Of a stretch of DNA of 64,000 bases, positions 46,206 through 61,939 are shown in pieces (position 1 is the first letter of the stretch; every line of letters begins with the position of its first letter). The DNA is taken from NCBI RefSeq assembly GCF_036507355.1, contig NZ_AP027877.1. One strand, 5' to 3'. Source of the DNA: Escherichia coli (GTDB lineage: Bacteria > Pseudomonadota > Gammaproteobacteria > Enterobacterales > Enterobacteriaceae). The notes beneath the pieces are model-generated. The model was not told the origin of the DNA. It ran no database searches and saw nothing but the letters and a program-made list of their open reading frames with translations. Both the position numbers and the translations under genes were made by a program.

Positions 46206-46349
46206 AATGCCCCTCCGGCTCAATATAAAAAGCATCCGAAAATAACAATTGGACTTTAATTTCCTGTGCTGTATCTGTATAAAAGTGAGGTAGCCTGAGT
46301 TTAACGGACACTCCTTCCTGAAATAGAATGGCATCAGAAGGAGCTAATA

Positions 46350-46652
46350 ATGAGCAGAAAAACCCAACGTTACTCTAAAGAGTTCAAAGCCGAAGCTGTC
46401 AGAACGGTTCTTGAAAATCAACTTTCGATCAGTGAAGGCGCTTCCCGATTATCTCTTCCTGAAGGCACTTTAGGACAATGGGTTACCGCCGCCAGAAAAG
46501 GGCTCGGTACTCCTGGTTCCCGCACGGTGGCTGAACTGGAATCTGAAATTCTGCAACTGCGTAAGGCGTTAAATGAAGCTCGCCTTGAGCGAGATATATT
46601 AAAAAAAGCAACAGCGTATTTTGCACAGGAGTCGCTGAAAAATACGCGTTAA
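46350..46652 (+). CDS. IS3-family transposase OrfA (IS600-like)
   Basis: MSRKTQRYSKEFKAEAVRTVLENQLSISEGASRLSLPEGTLGQWV..; HTH plus leucine zipper. Confidence 0.85.
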   Translation: MSRKTQRYSKEFKAEAVRTVLENQLSISEGASRLSLPEGTLGQWVTAARKGLGTPGSRTVAELESEILQLRKALNEARLERDILKKATAYFAQESLKNTR

Positions 46653-46687
46653 TCGAACAATGGCGACAACAATTTCCCATTGAAGCG

Positions 46688-47506
46688 ATGTGTCAGGTAT
46701 TTGGTGTATCCAGGAGCGGTTATTACAACTGGGTACAGCATGAACCCTCAGACAGAAAACAAAGTGATGAGCGGCTAAAACTGGAGATTAAGGTGGCACA
46801 TATCCGCACTCGCGAAACATATGGAACCCGGCGGCTCCAGACGGAGCTGGCAGAGAATGGCATCATCGTTGGTCGTGACCGACTGGCACGTCTTCGTAAG
46901 GAGCTAAGGCTACGCTGTAAGCAGAAACGCAAGTTCAGAGCGACTACGAACTCGAACCACAATCTGCCAGTTGCGCCAAATCTGCTGAACCAGACGTTCG
47001 CTCCTACAGCACCAAATCAGGTCTGGGTGGCGGACCTGACGTATGTTGCCACACAGGAGGGATGGTTGTACCTCGCTGGCATCAAAGATGTTTATACGTG
47101 CGAAATTGTCGGCTACGCCATGGGAGAGCGCATGACAAAAGAGCTGACAGGTAAAGCCCTGTTTATGGCGCTCAGGAGCCAGCGCCCACCTGCCGGGCTA
47201 ATCCACCACTCTGATCGAGGTTCACAGTACTGCGCATACGATTACCGGGTCATACAGGAGCAGTTTGGTCTGAAAACATCAATGTCGCGTAAAGGTAACT
47301 GTTACGACAACGCTCCGATGGAAAGCTTCTGGGGAACGCTGAAAAATGAGAGCCTGAGCCACTATCGTTTTAATAACCGGGATGAAGCCATCTCAGTAAT
47401 ACGGGAATACATTGAGATTTTCTACAATCGTCAGCGTCGTCACTCTCGTCTGGGGAATATCTCCCCGGCAGCCTTCAGGGAAAAATATCATCAGATGGCT
47501 GCTTAA
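46688..47506 (+). CDS. IS3-family transposase OrfB, DDE integrase domain (IS600-like)
   Basis: ..WVADLTYVATQEGWLYLAGIKDVYTCEIVGYAM..HHSDRGSQYCAYDY.. Confidence 0.85.
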   Translation: MCQVFGVSRSGYYNWVQHEPSDRKQSDERLKLEIKVAHIRTRETYGTRRLQTELAENGIIVGRDRLARLRKELRLRCKQKRKFRATTNSNHNLPVAPNLLNQTFAPTAPNQVWVADLTYVATQEGWLYLAGIKDVYTCEIVGYAMGERMTKELTGKALFMALRSQRPPAGLIHHSDRGSQYCAYDYRVIQEQFGLKTSMSRKGNCYDNAPMESFWGTLKNESLSHYRFNNRDEAISVIREYIEIFYNRQRRHSRLGNISPAAFREKYHQMAA

Positions 47507-47530
47507 AAAAAGAATAAATGGTAGTGTCCG

Positions 47531-49237
47531 CTATTGCCAGTACACCTCAAATATTTCTGTATATCCCTCTCTGTCTGTTTCACCACGCGTCTGTGTGCCA
47601 TCCTCAAAAAAGGCAATATACTGCGTCTCTGAATACGGTATCCCGTCATCGTCCGTAAAATGGAACTGGAGGGTATATTTTTCAGGATCATCTTCATCGT
47701 CACCGCCATCACCTCCTCCGTCACTCCCTGCGGGATTGCCACTATCCTCTCCGGAGTCATCACTGCCATCATCACTGCTCTCATCCTCCGGAGCCTCCAG
47801 CACCGCCGGCTGCATCGTCCCCACCGGTGTCCCCGCACTGCCCCCACCGTTCAGGTTTATCTTCGGCCCGGCAATATCCACTCCGCCCGGCTGAATGACG
47901 ATAAACGAGCCACCCACCTTCAGGCTTATCCGGCTGCTGCTCTCCAGCACGATATCCCCGTCCACTTTTATCCCCAGCGCGCCACTCACCTTCTCCGCCA
48001 GGTCCCCCTTCACCACCAGGCTGTGTTTCCCCTCCACCAGACTGATATGGTTCCCCGTCGTCTTATGCTCCTGCTTCCCTTCCACCGTCACTTTACGGTC
48101 GTTTCTGACGTACAGACCGTCATCGTGACTCACGCTCACCGTCCGGTCATTCGTCACCTTCAGAGTCTGGTCATTACGTACCGTGATACGCCGGTCGTTC
48201 GCCACCGTGATACTCTGGTCGTGGCCCCCCTCTTTTTTTGTACCGACCTGAACCGTCTGACCCTTCACCACCGTTATCTTCTGGTCGTTACCGATGGTTT
48301 CCGTATGGTCATGTTTTACATCCGTTGTCCGGTCGTTGAGCACCTCCGTATCCATGTTCTTCTGCGCATGGATATACACCTGCTCATTACTGGTGGCGTC
48401 TTCAAACCGCAGCTCGTTAAATCCGCTTCCTTTATAGGTTTTTGACCGTATCGTCATCTGCGTCTTCGTTCCCGGCAGGTCGCCCGGGGAGCGGTTGTCC
48501 TCATGGTACGTCCGCCCCATGATTATCGGCTGGTCCGGGTCTCCGTTCAGAAAATCAACAATCACCTCCTGGCCCACCCGCGGTATCGCCAGATTACCGA
48601 ACCCCGGCCCCGCCCACGCCTGCGATACCCGCACCCAGCATGAACTCGCCTCCGTCATCCCGTGATAACGGTCCCAGTGGAACTTCACCCGTACCCGGCC
48701 ATGTTCATCGCAGAAGATTTCCTCTCCCGCAGGCCCGGTGACAATGGCACTCTGCGGCCCGTCCACCTTCGGTTTGCTTTGCAGCCGTGGACGCCACGTC
48801 CGGTCCGCCGGTATCACCTCTAACTGATTTCCCAGCGTGGTTCCTCTCCCTTGGCTGCCGTGCAGCGCCTGCGGCTGGCTTCCTGACAGTATGCTCTGTA
48901 CCACCTGCCATTCACGGTTCAGCATCTTCTGCGGATGCCCCGTCAGCGTAAACCGCGTTCCCGGCCACAGCCTCGGCGAATTACTCTGCCCTGTGGCCTT
49001 TTCCGCATCACTGCGCAGGCTCTCCATCTGGTACAGCGTGAAATCCTTGCCGTGCTGCTCATCCTTGAACCTTCCCGGATAATCAAATATTTCATACTGC
49101 GCCAGCTGTCCGTTCAGGTTCTCACCCTGCTGCTCATACATCCCCGGCCAGTCCGGCACCTTAAACGTGTAATCCTGGCTCTGCACCGACGACGGGCGGA
49201 CATGCGCCTCATACGCTACCGCCCGGGTTTCCGGCAT
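47531..49237 (-). pseudogene. vgrG: vgrG lacking ~270 N-terminal residues; 3' end runs into the IS600-like element
   Basis: Starts within the gp27-like region (..VRPSSVQSQDYTFKVPDWPG..), contains gp5 OB-fold segment (..VDGPQSAIVTGPAGEEIFCDEHGRVRVKFHWDR..) and Asp/Glu/Gly-rich C-terminal extension; last 6 codons are IS sequence. Confidence 0.8.
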
Positions 49238-49338: not shown

Positions 49339-49857
49339 TTATGCTTCCAGCGGTGCACGCCAGTCATCGGCACCAGAAGTACCGGATTTGATGTGCTCCC
49401 ACTCAACCTTACGGTATGCCAGTGATACTGCGAGCAATTGCGTAAACTCACGCTGTGCAGGGTCCTGGCAGTGCGGCATGTGCAGGTTCATGTCCACAAT
49501 CGTCGCGTCAGTAAGACGTGTGGTGAAGTAGTGCTCCTGCTTGCCTTCAACTGAAGTACGCCACCAGTGCAGCTCCACTTTCGGCAGCATTTCACCGGAG
49601 GCCAGCGCGTTGTACAGCAGCGGAACGGCTTTGTTCAGCGCCACGGTGAAAATGAACGGTTTGTGCGCGCGCTGCCCGGAAGGTTGACCAGACTGTGGAT
49701 CGGTTGGAACAGTAACGTTATGCAGAAACTCCTGCACCAGCATTTCATCTTCGTGTCCCTGCACGTAGATATTGCCGACAGAATCTGCGGTGAAAGCACC
49801 GGCAGTGATGTTCCCCTGGGTCTGACCTGTAATTGAAATGTAACATGGGGTTGGCAT
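49339..49857 (-). CDS. hcp: T6SS tube protein Hcp (172 aa)
   Basis: MPTPCYISITGQTQGNITAGAFTADSVGNIYVQGHEDEMLV..HKPFIFTVALNKAVPLLYNAL.. Confidence 0.9.
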   Translation of the reverse strand: MPTPCYISITGQTQGNITAGAFTADSVGNIYVQGHEDEMLVQEFLHNVTVPTDPQSGQPSGQRAHKPFIFTVALNKAVPLLYNALASGEMLPKVELHWWRTSVEGKQEHYFTTRLTDATIVDMNLHMPHCQDPAQREFTQLLAVSLAYRKVEWEHIKSGTSGADDWRAPLEA

Positions 49858-50559
49858 TTATGAACTCCTTGTGAAATTATCAACTGCTGTTTTACGAACA
49901 ACCCGTCGTTAATCCCCGACGGGTTAGAGTGTGATGCGGCTCACATCAGGAACCACACCCTTTTCTTTATTCGAGTTACAGGCACACGTAATTAGCACCT
50001 ACTGAAAAACTCTTTTATGGTGTTTAAATATATTTTTAGTCAATTTCAGAACACGGTCACATAAGCTAAAAATATATCAACTTCAACAGCAGAATTATCC
50101 ATAACGTATCTTCCCCCCCATAAAAATCCACAGCCGCGTCAAAAACAAATTATTACGACACTTACTCCGCCATCGTTCCAGCACGCAATTAAGATATTCC
50201 TTAAAGGAATTCCTTATGATGTATTGCCAGCAATTAATTAATTGATAAAACCATACATAAAACTTATTAATCAATTTAATAAATGCATATAAATCAATAT
50301 ATTATTGTATTTGATTGACCGTAAAATCATATTCATCAAGTCTATAAATACCAAAATCTATTTCACTATAATATATTAGCAAGGAAGAATGCATCTCTTT
50401 CTAAAATATAAATAGTTCTTTTAATATTTTATTTCATGAGTAGAATACTGATCACAACAGAAGGAAGGTTACATTATCTAACTGCCACTGAAACGGTATC
50501 TTCGGTATTTTTATGCAGTACGAAAATGCTGTGCTCATGGTCTGAACGGGAACATTTTT

Positions 50560-50715
50560 ATGAGCAAAATGAACAACAATGGCGGCAGTGTCGCGCCGAA
50601 AGAAAGAATCAGCGTTCGGTATACACCAAAAGTTGATGGGGTGGCTGCTGATATCGAATTGCCGCTGAATTTATTGATCACCGGCAATCTGAAAGGGAAA
50701 CCAGATAACACGCCG
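50560..50715 (+). pseudogene. tssB: tssB (sheath small subunit) 5' stub, ~52 codons, cut by IS3-family element
   Basis: MSKMNNNGGSVAPKERISVRYTPKVDGVAADIELPLNLLITGNLKGKPDNTP then IS terminus; TssB N-terminal pattern; too short for the ORF track. Confidence 0.55.
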
Positions 50716-50772
50716 TGAATCGCCACGGGTTTAACAGACACCTCAGAGTCATTTAAGATGGCTTAAAGAGAG

Positions 50773-51057
50773 GTGCCCATGAGCGGTAAGCGTTATCCCG
50801 AAGAGTTTAAAATTGAAGCAGTCAAACAGGTTGTTGATCGCGGTTATTCTGTTGCCAGCGTTGCAACACGTCTCGATATCACCACCCACAGCCTTTACGC
50901 CTGGATAAAGAAGTACGGTCCGGATTCTTCCGCTAATAAAGAACAGTCAGATGCTCAGGCCGAGATCCGCCGTCTCCAGAAAGAGCTGAAGCGGGTTACC
51001 GACGAACGGGACATATTAAAAAAAGCCGCGGCGTACTTCGCAAAGCTGTCCGACTGA
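50773..51057 (+). CDS. IS3-family transposase OrfA
   Basis: MPMSGKRYPEEFKIEAVKQVVDRGYSVASVATRLDITTHSLYAWIKKY.. Confidence 0.85.
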   Translation: MPMSGKRYPEEFKIEAVKQVVDRGYSVASVATRLDITTHSLYAWIKKYGPDSSANKEQSDAQAEIRRLQKELKRVTDERDILKKAAAYFAKLSD

Positions 51058-51113
51058 GGTACGCCTTTATCCGTGACAACACCTGTTGCTGGCCTGTTCG
51101 CCTGCTCTGTCGG

Positions 51114-51926
51114 GTGCTGGATGTTCATCCCAGTGGTTTTTACGCCTGGCTTCAGCAGCCGCATTCACAACGCCATCAGGCAGACCTGAGGCTGACAGGG
51201 CAGATTAAACAGTTCTGGCTGGAATCGGGATGCGTCTATGGTTATCGCAAAATCCATCTGGATCTGCGGGACAGCGGGCAACAGTGCGGAGTGAACAGAG
51301 TCTGGCGACTGATGAAACGTGTCGGGATAAAGGCTCAGGTCGGATACCGGAGCCCGCGGGCACGTAAAGGCGAGGCCAGTATCGTGTCGCCCAACAGGCT
51401 CCAGCGACAGTTCAATCCGGATGCTCCGGATAAGCGTTGGGTAACGGACATAACCTACATCAGGACCCACGAAGGCTGGCTGTATCTTGCCGTGGTTGTT
51501 GATCTGTTCTCACGCAAAATTATCGGCTGGTCCATGCAATCCCGGATGACAAAGGACATTGTCCTGAACGCACTGCTGATGGCTGTATGGCGCCGTAATC
51601 CCCAAAAACAGGTGCTGGTTCATTCGGATCAGGGCAGTCAGTACACAAGCCATGAGTGGCAGTCGTTCCTGAAATCACACGGCCTGGATGGCAGCATGAG
51701 CCGTCGCGGTAACTGCCATGATAATGCGGTTGCAGAAAGCTTTTTCCAGTTGTTGAAACGCGAACGGATAAAGAAAAAGATCTACGGAACGCGGGAAGAA
51801 GCCCGCAGCGATATTTTTGATTACATCGAAATGTTTTATAACAGTAAGCGTCGGCATGGTTCCAGCGATCAGATGTCACCGACAGAATATGAAAACCAGT
51901 ATTATCAACGGCTCGGAAGTGTCTAG
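51114..51926 (+). CDS. IS3-family transposase OrfB (DDE integrase domain)
   Basis: ..WVTDITYIRTHEGWLYLAVVVDLFSRKIIGWSM..VHSDQGSQYTSHEW.. Confidence 0.85.
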   Translation: MLDVHPSGFYAWLQQPHSQRHQADLRLTGQIKQFWLESGCVYGYRKIHLDLRDSGQQCGVNRVWRLMKRVGIKAQVGYRSPRARKGEASIVSPNRLQRQFNPDAPDKRWVTDITYIRTHEGWLYLAVVVDLFSRKIIGWSMQSRMTKDIVLNALLMAVWRRNPQKQVLVHSDQGSQYTSHEWQSFLKSHGLDGSMSRRGNCHDNAVAESFFQLLKRERIKKKIYGTREEARSDIFDYIEMFYNSKRRHGSSDQMSPTEYENQYYQRLGSV

Positions 51927-52198
51927 ATTATCCGTGGCGATTCAGTTGTCAAGCAGATAGAAGCCATCTAGGTCAGGGGGAATGACTAGGAATTACTCCC
52001 CAAGGGTAGCGTACGTCTACACACATCAAATTACCTCCCGGACAGGGACATAGTAGAAATATTGTGTATTGCAATTATGGATACTGTCATCGTCTAGGTA
52101 GTTCGCCAGCTTTATAGTGTTTTACTGAATTTGGCCACCTGAGCAGAGGTGATATGGGAGAGTGATTTTCATACGCTCTCGTATGGTTTCCGGCCTGA

Positions 52199-52426
52199 AT
52201 GCAGTGTTCATCACGCGATCCGCACGGTGAAATTACAGCTCACAGACTGTGGGGAAACCCGGGGCGCTGGGTGATTGAAGACGACCTGTCCAGTTACTTC
52301 GACACCGTACACCATCGACTGCTGATGAAAGCCGTACGCCGCAGGATCAGTGACGCACGTTTTATGGCCCTCCTGTGGAAAACCATCAAGGCGGGCACAT
52401 CGAGGTCGGTCTCTTTCGGGCGGTAA
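52199..52426 (+). pseudogene. Reverse transcriptase fragment (ykfC-like)
   Basis: ..VIEDDLSSYFDTVHHRLLMKAVRRRISDARFMALLWKTIKAG.. resembles RT finger/palm motifs; no continuation. Confidence 0.45.
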
Positions 52427-52429
52427 GTG

Positions 52430-52684
52430 ACGCCGCGCCAGCTGACGTTGCCACGAATATTCGCCAATACGCTGCCAGACTTCGGTATGAAAGCGCAGAA
52501 TCAATGACCGGTAATCGGCCATGCTTTCGCGGTACGGCAGCGTCAACGTAAAGCAGAACACCACGAGTCGTGGGTAATGGTCAACGGCCTGTTGCAGAAA
52601 GGCTCGTGTATTTGTCGTGTCAGTCGAATTGCCGGAGACGATGGAGGGAGAATAAGGATTCATAACGGCGCTCTCAATGAACAC
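52430..52684 (-). pseudogene. Inovirus Gp2-family protein, N-terminal fragment
   Basis: ..AFLQQAVDHYPRLVVFCFTLTLPYRE.. resembles the N-terminus of Gp2-family proteins of CP4-type islands; remainder of the track ORF is antisense to the RT fragment. Confidence 0.4.
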
Positions 52685-52888
52685 TGGTGTGATGGACAGG
52701 AGTGTGATGTTGCAGGTGTGCTGCTCATCATCGATCCCATATCATTACGTTCGCTCACTAAGACGGAGTGCCTTTCGTCATTTAACCTGTCACAATCCAA
52801 ATAATTTCAGACAGATATTATCTCCGTGAATCCCCCGCCTCCTTAACCGGAGCGCGGGGATTTTTCTTTTTCACGTTGAGAACTCTGT

Positions 52889-53771
52889 ATGACTAAACCT
52901 CACGGCCTTCAGGCCCTTGAACAACCGCTGGCGTCGCTTCCCGATGCGCTTCGCCAGCTTATTCTTGAACGTATTCAGAATCTCACCCACTATGAGCCGG
53001 TGATTGGTATCATGGGCAAAAGCGGTGCCGGTAAGTCTTCGCTCTGTAACGAACTCTTCCGGGGTGAGGTCTCCCCCGTCAGTGATGTGAACGCCTGTAC
53101 CCGTGAAGTGCTGCGCTTCCGGCTGCGCAGCGGGCGTCACAGTCTGGTGATTGTTGATTTACCGGGTGTGGGAGAAAACGGGCAACGGGACCATGAATAC
53201 CGTGCCCTGTACCGGCGTATGCTGCCGGAACTGGACCTGGTTCTGTGGGTCATTAAGTCCGATGACCGGGCGCTGTCGGTGGACGAGCAGTTCTGGCGCG
53301 GTGTGATGCAGCCTTACCAGCAGCAGGTGGTGTTCGTGATTAACCAGGCCGACAAAATAGAACCCAGCCATGAATGGGATACCCGTTCTGGTACTCCCTC
53401 AGCACAGCAACAGAAAAATCTTCAGGAAAAGCAGGTTGCCATTACCACGATGTTTAAGCCACATCACCCGGTCTGCGTGGTATCCGCATGTACCGGATGG
53501 GGCGTGGAGGATATGGTAGCAACCATGATGCGCTGTCTGCCGGACCGCGCCACCAGCCCAGTAGCGACACAGTTGCACGGGAGGCTCTGCACGGAGCCGG
53601 TAAAGTCGCAGGCCCGTGACGGCTTCGGTGAGGCGGTGGGGCGGTGGGGCGGGTGTTCGATACGGCAGAATCATCGTTATTCCTGCCTGCGCCGCTGAAG
53701 ACGGTGATACGTACCGTGCGTGATGCTGTGGTGTCTGTAGCCCGCGCGGTCTGGGACTGGATCTTCTTCTG
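52889..53771 (+). pseudogene. YeeP/YfjP-family GTPase with 3' frameshift from an 8-bp tandem duplication
   Basis: P-loop GKSGAGKSSLCN; cggtgggg repeated in tandem at 53634..53649; removing one copy restores ..GEAVGRVFDTAESSLFLPAPLKTVIRTVRDAVVSVARAVWDWIFF. Confidence 0.65.
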
Positions 53772-54032
53772 AATGAGTAAAAGGTCATCAGGACTGTAGT
53801 GAATGACTCTGTTTATTCACCGCCTGGTAGATGATTATTTCCAGGCAGACATAACCTGTCCTGACCAGCAAAAGATACCACCAGTCATAAGCGCGTCACC
53901 ACTGCCGACGTTGCATCCACACAGTCTTCTTGCACCAGGCGTTTCGCTACGTATGACGGACACAACCTGTCAGTCCCATCCTTTACAGTAATACCTTCTT
54001 TATTAATCAATTACCCAACACGGAGATAATAC

Positions 54033-61862: not shown

Positions 61863-61939
61863 TGGCGGAACGGACGGGACTCGAACCCGCGACCCCCTGC
61901 GTGACAGGCAGGTATTCTAACCGACTGAACTACCGCTCC
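61863..61939 (-). tRNA. aspV: tRNA-Asp (anticodon GUC)
   Basis: Reverse complement reads GGAGCGGTAGTTCAGTCGGTTAGAATACCTGCCTGTCACGCAGGGGGTCGCGGGTTCGAGTCCCGTCCGTTCCGCCA. Confidence 0.9.

Follow-up and report, generated by a model that had tools for sequence, protein, structure and literature searches.

A probable IS-linked deletion scar beside an older mosaic of decayed mobile elements on an Escherichia coli chromosome

Introduction

How did the start of a T6SS gene, an IS3-family element and an assortment of gene fragments come to lie side by side on an Escherichia coli chromosome? The window, i.e., the whole 64-kb stretch of DNA analyzed here, carries flhA, fadE, yafV, T6SS accessory genes, hcp, a truncated tssB, the IS, half of a cryptic island and the tRNA-Asp gene aspV, which is still present at 61863-61939 on the minus strand. 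The left part of the window is 95–99.7% identical to strain FDAARGOS_944 (locus L007), and the DNA from position 51945 rightward is 99–100% identical to 33 complete E. coli genomes. The original prediction, made from the letters of the window, described a reverse transcriptase (RT)-like fragment immediately to the right of the IS, overlapped in antisense by the N-terminal part of an inovirus Gp2-family gene, and proposed that the IS joined the T6SS remnant to a prophage-remnant module by deletion.

Results and Discussion

The IS3-family element and the truncated tssB gene

The IS (50716..51944, plus strand) is 1229 bp long and apparently intact; ISEc16 and ISEc31 (PMC3522654) are candidate names for it. 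It matches NF033516 (transpos_IS3) with an E-value of 8.5e-101, as well as rve, HTH_Tnp_1 and HTH_21. It has the organization of an IS3-family member. Two overlapping open reading frames, orfA coding for an HTH protein (50779-51057, plus strand; HTH_Tnp_1, E 4e-20) and orfB coding for a protein with an rve/DDE domain (ending at 51926, plus strand; rve, E 2e-33), are accompanied by a −1 frameshift at an A-rich slippery run, an A7G stretch read directly from the sequence at 51018-51025. The terminal inverted repeats are 13 bp long and perfect, and end in 5′-TG...CA-3′ (TGAATCGCCACGG / CCGTGGCGATTCA). The prediction of an IS3-family element adjoining the junction was therefore right, the element ending at 51944. 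Comparison with five other 1229-bp copies, in which PGAP annotates a programmed frameshift, uncovered a single base difference (at 51689, Asp for Glu). Three of these five full-length copies are flanked by a perfect 3-bp target duplication (cgc, ctt and ccg), and no target consensus was seen among the five. The window copy, preceded by ccg and followed by gtt, has no target duplication, as is expected after recombination.

The 1229-bp IS often hosts other elements. An E.c.I4-type intron is found at IS position about 744 in one locus (L006, 1456-3723), and IS30 sits at position 314 in another (L001, 7612-7699). This pattern mirrors the K-12 arrangement IS911::IS30 plus ykfC, with DNA similarity between the two IS types being undetectable.

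To the left of the IS, the 5′ fragment of tssB (50560..50715, plus strand) is cut by the element after 52 codons. It matches PF05591 (VipA, E 1.2e-7) and TIGR03358 (E 4e-10), and the matches cover only profile positions 2-44 of about 155-160 rather than a full-length TssB/VipA. Up to position 50715/6, the DNA is 99.3% identical to the intact tssB locus of FDAARGOS_944, where past codon 52 the gene reads TTGGACGAG... and where tssC through tssM, VasL and hcp come next. The window tssB is a truncated remnant of the gene that is intact in FDAARGOS_944, and neither of the fragments to the right of the IS continues it, as had been stated. This T6SS cluster of E. coli lies between yafV and aspV. While FDAARGOS_944 shares hcp, vgrG and the start of tssB with the window at 98–99% identity and at the same chromosomal position, the window has lost the whole stretch that starts with tssB codon 53 and reaches the second hcp. 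The T6SS remnant was harmed at several other points, since IS600 (46286-47549) is inserted in a Vgr-family gene and a 739-bp deletion with respect to FDAARGOS_944, located at 49212/49213, takes away the 5′ end of vgrG.

A five-piece mosaic to the right of the IS

The DNA to the right of the IS is a five-piece mosaic and not two fragments. The RT fragment does not directly follow the IS, as had been supposed; 206 bp (51945-52150) intervene, and these consist of a remnant of the flank of a MADS island and an IS911-like terminal repeat. Positions 51945-52112 are 100% identical to strain 720632 (L002), and their identity to loci L003, L005 and L004 is 94.7%, 85% and 79%, respectively. Leftward from this flank, strain 720632 has a mads1-like HTH gene followed by helicase, DUF4391, methyltransferase and type III endonuclease genes. 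The first portion of the flank (51945..52025) is a non-coding remnant of the region upstream of mads1 in the MADS/type III R-M defense island. The second (52026..52112, minus strand) is the 3′ end of a small HTH gene that neighbors mads1, of which 29 codons and the stop codon are left. Its translation, IKLANYLDDDSIHNCNTQYFYYVPVREVI followed by the stop, could be aligned with the C-terminus of an 85-aa protein of L005 (..KKLAKYLDDDTIQNRITQDFYDVPVRELV..).

Two other identities were considered for this stretch and rejected. An IS110 end or bridge RNA at 51945-52112 was discarded because the IS110 label given by PGAP in L003 belongs to other DNA, located past the breakpoint at 52112, and the part under that label that is common to L003 and the window (95% match) is the MADS-island flank. 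Position 51945 is not the 5′ end of a group II intron either, since the RT starts at codon 116 just 206 bp away and Rfam detected no intron RNA. A promoter and terminator scan of 51850-52950 returned nothing above chance.

Exactly where the MADS-flank homology ends, an IS911-like left terminal inverted repeat begins (52113..52156, plus strand). It retains 32 of 36 terminal bases, with a mutated TGA tip, and over 41 bp it is 95% identical to the terminus of an element whose insN transposase gene starts 72 bp further on, in a K-12-type strain (L013, 1768-1811). This element is presumably the IS911 of the K-12 annotation, and the layout in L013 is IS911-IS30-IS911-ykfC. Strain S43 (L003, 5167-5472) also has this IS911-like tip (TGAAGTG), placed identically, and carries an IS110-family fragment and IS5 where the window has the RT and Gp2-like pieces; the comparison suggests that the debris in S43 is the product of an independent decay path from a common ancestor.

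The next piece (52151..52430, plus strand) comes from the interior of an E.c.I4-type group II intron RT/maturase gene and comprises its codons 116-210 of 502. The existence of a plus-strand RT-like fragment was borne out by both profile and nucleotide comparisons. NCBIfam TIGR04416 is matched at positions 89-169 of 353 in two frames (E 1.7e-6 and 1e-11), there are two 1-bp deletions at about 52264 and 52396, and over 282 bp the fragment shares 92.6% identity with ltrA in L005 and L006 and with ykfC in L013. In 33 genomes, this stretch carries a PGAP annotation as a frameshifted RT pseudogene. Because only codons 116-210 of 502 are left, the fragment is a pseudogene remnant and not a member gene of the RT/maturase family (TIGR04416; RT, X and En/D domains), and its matches, of 27 and 44 bits, fall short of the cut-off of 300. 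Only 280 bp of the open reading frame show DNA homology to the intron, and no Rfam match to group II intron ribozyme domains (e.g., V/VI) was obtained in 49800-53800 at E-values up to 0.1. The intron type was assigned from published work showing that E.c.I4 introns home into IS3-like transposase genes, including that of IS911, and that K-12 has an E.c.I4 fragment (PMC3522654).

The ykfC/IS911 region of the K-12 CP4-6 prophage resembles the window in that an IS911 left end lies beside an E.c.I4-type RT in a cryptic island, adjoining a YkfA/YfjP-type GTPase module, with the RT and the IS911 tip at the identities given above. However, CP4-6 has kept 1.1 kb of the RT and the greater part of IS911, together with IS30. 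In the window, IS911 is reduced to 44 bp and the RT to 280 bp, the two being fused at GATATG, and the breakpoint on the right falls in a Gp2-like gene, as opposed to IS5 in CP4-6.

Identity of the Gp2-like fragment

The fragment to the right of the RT (52418..52684, minus strand) is the N-terminal 89 codons of a gene that probably belongs to UCP030791 (PF27752), judging from the precomputed labels of homologues that are 60–90% identical to it. The E-values of the relatives range from 7e-50 to 1e-20, and NCBI calls some of them 'DUF3296 / inovirus-type Gp2 protein, partial'. In the alignment, similarity to these relatives ends at residue 89, and full-length relatives have about 176-198 aa. A profile search of 1.8 billion representatives returned 82 relatives, and many of the longer ones have 176-198 aa. 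The window retains only 89 of roughly 176-198 codons, which sets it apart from the YagK/YfjJ proteins.

Several comparisons bear on the assignment to the inovirus Gp2 family. The fragment itself had no hit in Pfam, NCBIfam or PHROG, and extending the NCBIfam and PHROG scans to its relatives yielded nothing useful. When compared with PF11726 (YagK_YfjJ_C), the fragment had no hit at E-values up to 10, and the longer relatives scored 14-21 bits against a gathering cut-off of 25.8. Six relatives match this profile collinearly from profile position 2, below threshold, with E-values of 4e-4 to 3e-2. BLASTP and narrow-profile hhalign of the fragment against a true Gp2 protein were negative, and only hhalign of a broader, 30-sequence family profile against a true Gp2-family protein of L008 gave a collinear alignment, of 111 columns, with a probability of 71% (E 3.8e-5). 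The YagK/YfjJ (PF11726) proteins belong to E. coli cryptic islands, the same kind of island in which the window fragment is found, and the motifs YPRL..F.F.L, PPTLLRWxWE and MVLLxN of the relatives line up with a bona fide YagK/YfjJ member. Unlike in YagK/YfjJ, the HYH motif is replaced, the hits lie under the Pfam threshold and the family has its own entry, PF27752. The fragment thus appears to be a remote relative of YagK/YfjJ ('inovirus Gp2') rather than a demonstrated member, and its best label is UCP030791. The prediction of a minus-strand N-terminal gene fragment starting at 52684 stands, and that of its Gp2 family holds only in the remote sense given by the sub-threshold PF11726 matches and the hhalign comparison. 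The profile support that had been sought exists for the RT (TIGR04416); the Gp2-like fragment itself was matched by no Pfam, NCBIfam or PHROG model, and its longer relatives stay below the PF11726 threshold.

Among the close relatives, which come from Salmonella, Enterobacter, Klebsiella and Citrobacter, nearly all have a broken frame or a short length (49-152 aa). This Gp2-like subfamily appears to be widely pseudogenized beside the GTPase module.

Microhomologies at the joints and age of the mosaic

When the joints of the mosaic were judged against the parents, i.e., ltrA (L005/L006), IS911 (L013) and the Gp2-like gene (L011/L009), the overlaps turned out to be microhomologies of 6-13 bp. 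At the IS911/RT joint, GATATG is present in both parents (52151-52156). At the RT/Gp2-like joint (52418-52430), the window has GGGCGGTAAGTGA, compared with GGGCGGCCAGTGA in ltrA and GGGCG(G/C)TAAGTGA in the Gp2-like parent; the RT and Gp2-like homologies share only GGGCGG(TA)AGTGA. The internal joints are typical of deletions at microhomologies.

The 157-aa open reading frame at 52211..52684 (minus strand) is accordingly a chimera. This mechanically called frame starts with the Gp2-like N-terminus and continues into antisense read-through of the RT. Its residues 1-89 are Gp2-like, it diverges from the relatives after residue 89, and in tblastn its residues 79-157 find ltrA genes in the antisense direction only. 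The antisense overlap of RT and Gp2 that had been described is therefore nothing but read-through of the frame, and the two pieces (52151-52430 and 52418-52684) abut tail to tail. Both the RT-like and the Gp2-like frames are dead debris, and should not be scored as a retron, a defense RT or an overlapping gene pair.

The mosaic is present at 99–100% identity in 33 of 5426 complete E. coli genomes. In 15 of these 33 there is no IS, and the mosaic is continuous with the MADS island; the mosaic is for this reason older than the IS event. The RT/Gp2 joint is likewise older, and it is unconnected to the IS. In the proposed sequence of events, an IS911-like element with an E.c.I4-type intron would have sat in the small HTH gene by the MADS/type III R-M operon, in an island that had integrated beside aspV. 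A first illegitimate deletion, at GATATG, would have linked about base 44 of IS911 to RT codon 116, and a second one, at GGGCGG, would have linked RT codon 210 to codon 89 of the neighboring UCP030791/Gp2-like gene. The terminal repeat, a 280-bp piece of RT and a truncated Gp2-like gene beside its native GTPase neighbor would then have been left over. Read in this way, the region would be a small and clean example of the microhomology-mediated decay of nested mobile elements (an intron in an IS in an island).

Origin of the junction between tssB and the MADS-island flank

Strain 720632 has the two flanks of the window IS in a collinear layout. In the orientation of the window, its order is hcp (minus), tssB (plus), the T6SS core, ykfM, an integrase, an intact Gp2-family gene, YfjI, IS1203, IS66, IS600, the MADS/type III R-M genes and then the window sequence from 51945. 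About 45.5 kb separate the two breakpoints in this strain, and the T6SS core, the MADS genes and the rest of that 45.5 kb are absent from the 64-kb window. The flanks of the IS are non-contiguous but co-oriented in relatives, and the target duplication is missing. The layout of 720632 together with the missing duplication supports an IS-mediated loss. The proposal that the IS joined the T6SS remnant to the prophage-remnant module by deletion thus found support in this layout, in the ccg and gtt flanks and in the cut tssB; the IS does connect what is left of the T6SS with the right-hand half of the island, the intervening DNA having been lost. Our explanation for the region as a whole, to which we assign a probability of about three in four, is that older microhomology decay was followed by the formation of an IS-linked deletion scar, and that the result is not a functional unit. 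Such a scar is ordinary genome decay.

As for the route, we infer that the 1229-bp element came to connect tssB codon 52 with a site 85 bp upstream of mads1 most likely through homologous recombination between two direct IS copies, of which one would have lain in tssB and the other at the MADS site. Such recombination would drop the T6SS core, the island integrase and the defense genes (about 45 kb in a 720632-like layout), and its outcome would be one hybrid IS without a target duplication. The strain would in this manner have lost a functional T6SS, the island integrase and the MADS/type III R-M defense in a single IS-linked event. The window agrees with what is known of deletions between direct IS copies in having one IS between co-oriented, non-contiguous flanks and no 3-bp duplication, and the intervening DNA of about 45 kb exists in the collinear reference 720632. 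It differs in that no two-copy intermediate was found and in that another lineage has the IS at the same site in reverse. The exact junction of the window was found in 0 of 5426 complete genomes, and these genomes have no simple insertion of the IS in tssB or, in this orientation, at the MADS site. Metagenome contigs scanned for the right junction gave no match.

The reversed IS counts against this route, as simple recombination between two copies fails to explain it. In 18 complete genomes the same IS is present at the same nucleotide in inverted orientation (51944/51945 in the window; 8013/8014 in L001). The five of these 18 genomes that were inspected all have one structure, consisting of IS1, the last 88 bp of IS30, IS bases 314 to 1 and then GTTGTCAAGC. 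This inverted copy, which meets the bond with its left end, is interrupted by IS30 and truncated by IS1, whereas the window copy, with its right end there, is intact. On the island side, the window shares three SNPs with the inverted-IS lineage when both are compared with L002. Because homologous recombination keeps each flank on the same IS end, the copies in the window and in the 18 genomes must be separate copies. As recombination cannot exchange the IS end that touches a flank, either the bond was hit twice independently or a second copy landed 3 bp from the end of a resident IS. Insertion close to the end of a resident IS (targeted insertion) is a property of IS911, and by analogy the second copy may have landed in an IS911-like manner. 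That the CCC/GTT bond 85 bp upstream of mads1 (51944/51945) is a preferred landing point for the IS3-family element is a tentative idea that we consider rather doubtful. An IR-like attractor at the empty site of L002 was discarded, since in Smith–Waterman comparisons of both IS ends the score was reached by 135-350 of 500 shuffles. An 18-bp extension of the IS into the flank, seen on plasmids, was dismissed as a chance gapped resemblance.

The first alternative to an in situ deletion is an import. Neither 720632 nor FDAARGOS_944 is the ancestor of the window, because the T6SS allele of 720632 is divergent (hcp 79.5%) and FDAARGOS_944, which has the T6SS allele of the window, has no island at aspV; this leaves room for an import anchored in the IS. 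A recipient of the FDAARGOS_944 type, with the IS in tssB and no island at aspV, would have taken up donor DNA with the arrangement IS-GTTGTC...island...aspV-dnaQ with the IS as the left and core genes as the right site of recombination, exchanging its T6SS core for the half-island. The two flanks do have different closest relatives, as FDAARGOS_944 represents the type found on the T6SS side, and over 51945-53631 the island side matches the L001-type lineage without a difference, including the three SNPs mentioned above. Nevertheless, the donor would need to carry the IS at this site and in this orientation, which none of the 5426 genomes does, and a mosaic ancestry is common in islands and needs no such route. 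We regard the import as unlikely.

Less probable still is a transposase-driven adjacent deletion, in which a single IS copy in tssB would have had its right end joined to a target at the MADS site. The same structure without a duplication would result, and the IS looks intact and potentially active. However, IS3-family elements transpose by a copy-out/paste-in mechanism via a circle (PMC2909936), a route that by itself deletes no neighboring DNA. Finally, it is highly improbable that the IS landed in a pre-existing deletion joint between tssB and the MADS flank and had no role in making it, since such an insertion should have produced a 3-bp duplication like those of three of the five other copies instead of the ccg and gtt flanks, and the empty MADS site (L002) and the intact tssB (L007) each run on in native sequence exactly from the ends of the IS. 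The route that we prefer is recombination between two direct copies. The value of these findings lies mainly in a correct annotation; they raise no new biological question, with the possible exception of repeated IS insertion at one nucleotide.

The spacer and the GTPase gene

To the right of the Gp2-like gene, the window continues with a native divergent spacer (52685..52888) that leads to a GTPase gene. This divergent pair of genes recurs in L011, a Salmonella contig, whose 92% DNA identity to the window begins exactly at 52418 and is contiguous through the spacer. A strong hairpin followed by a T-run is located on the plus strand at about 52832-52870 (CCCCGCCTCC/GGAGCGCGGGG, then ATTTTTCTTTTT). 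It lies 18 bp ahead of the GTPase start codon and has a predicted fold of −27.6 kcal/mol (z −5.5). No Rfam family matched the hairpin, and the region 52779-52871 is conserved upstream of GTPase paralogues in more than 4000 E. coli genomes. The hairpin could be a leader/attenuator or an insulating terminator. The first gene of the surviving half of the island codes for a YfjP/YkfA-type GTPase (52889..53698, plus strand; MMR_HSR1, E 5.7e-16). An 8-bp tandem duplication at 53632-53639 (GGCGGTGG), visible in the alignment, shifts the frame at its C-terminus, and the protein has 269 aa versus 291 aa in L001 and L002.
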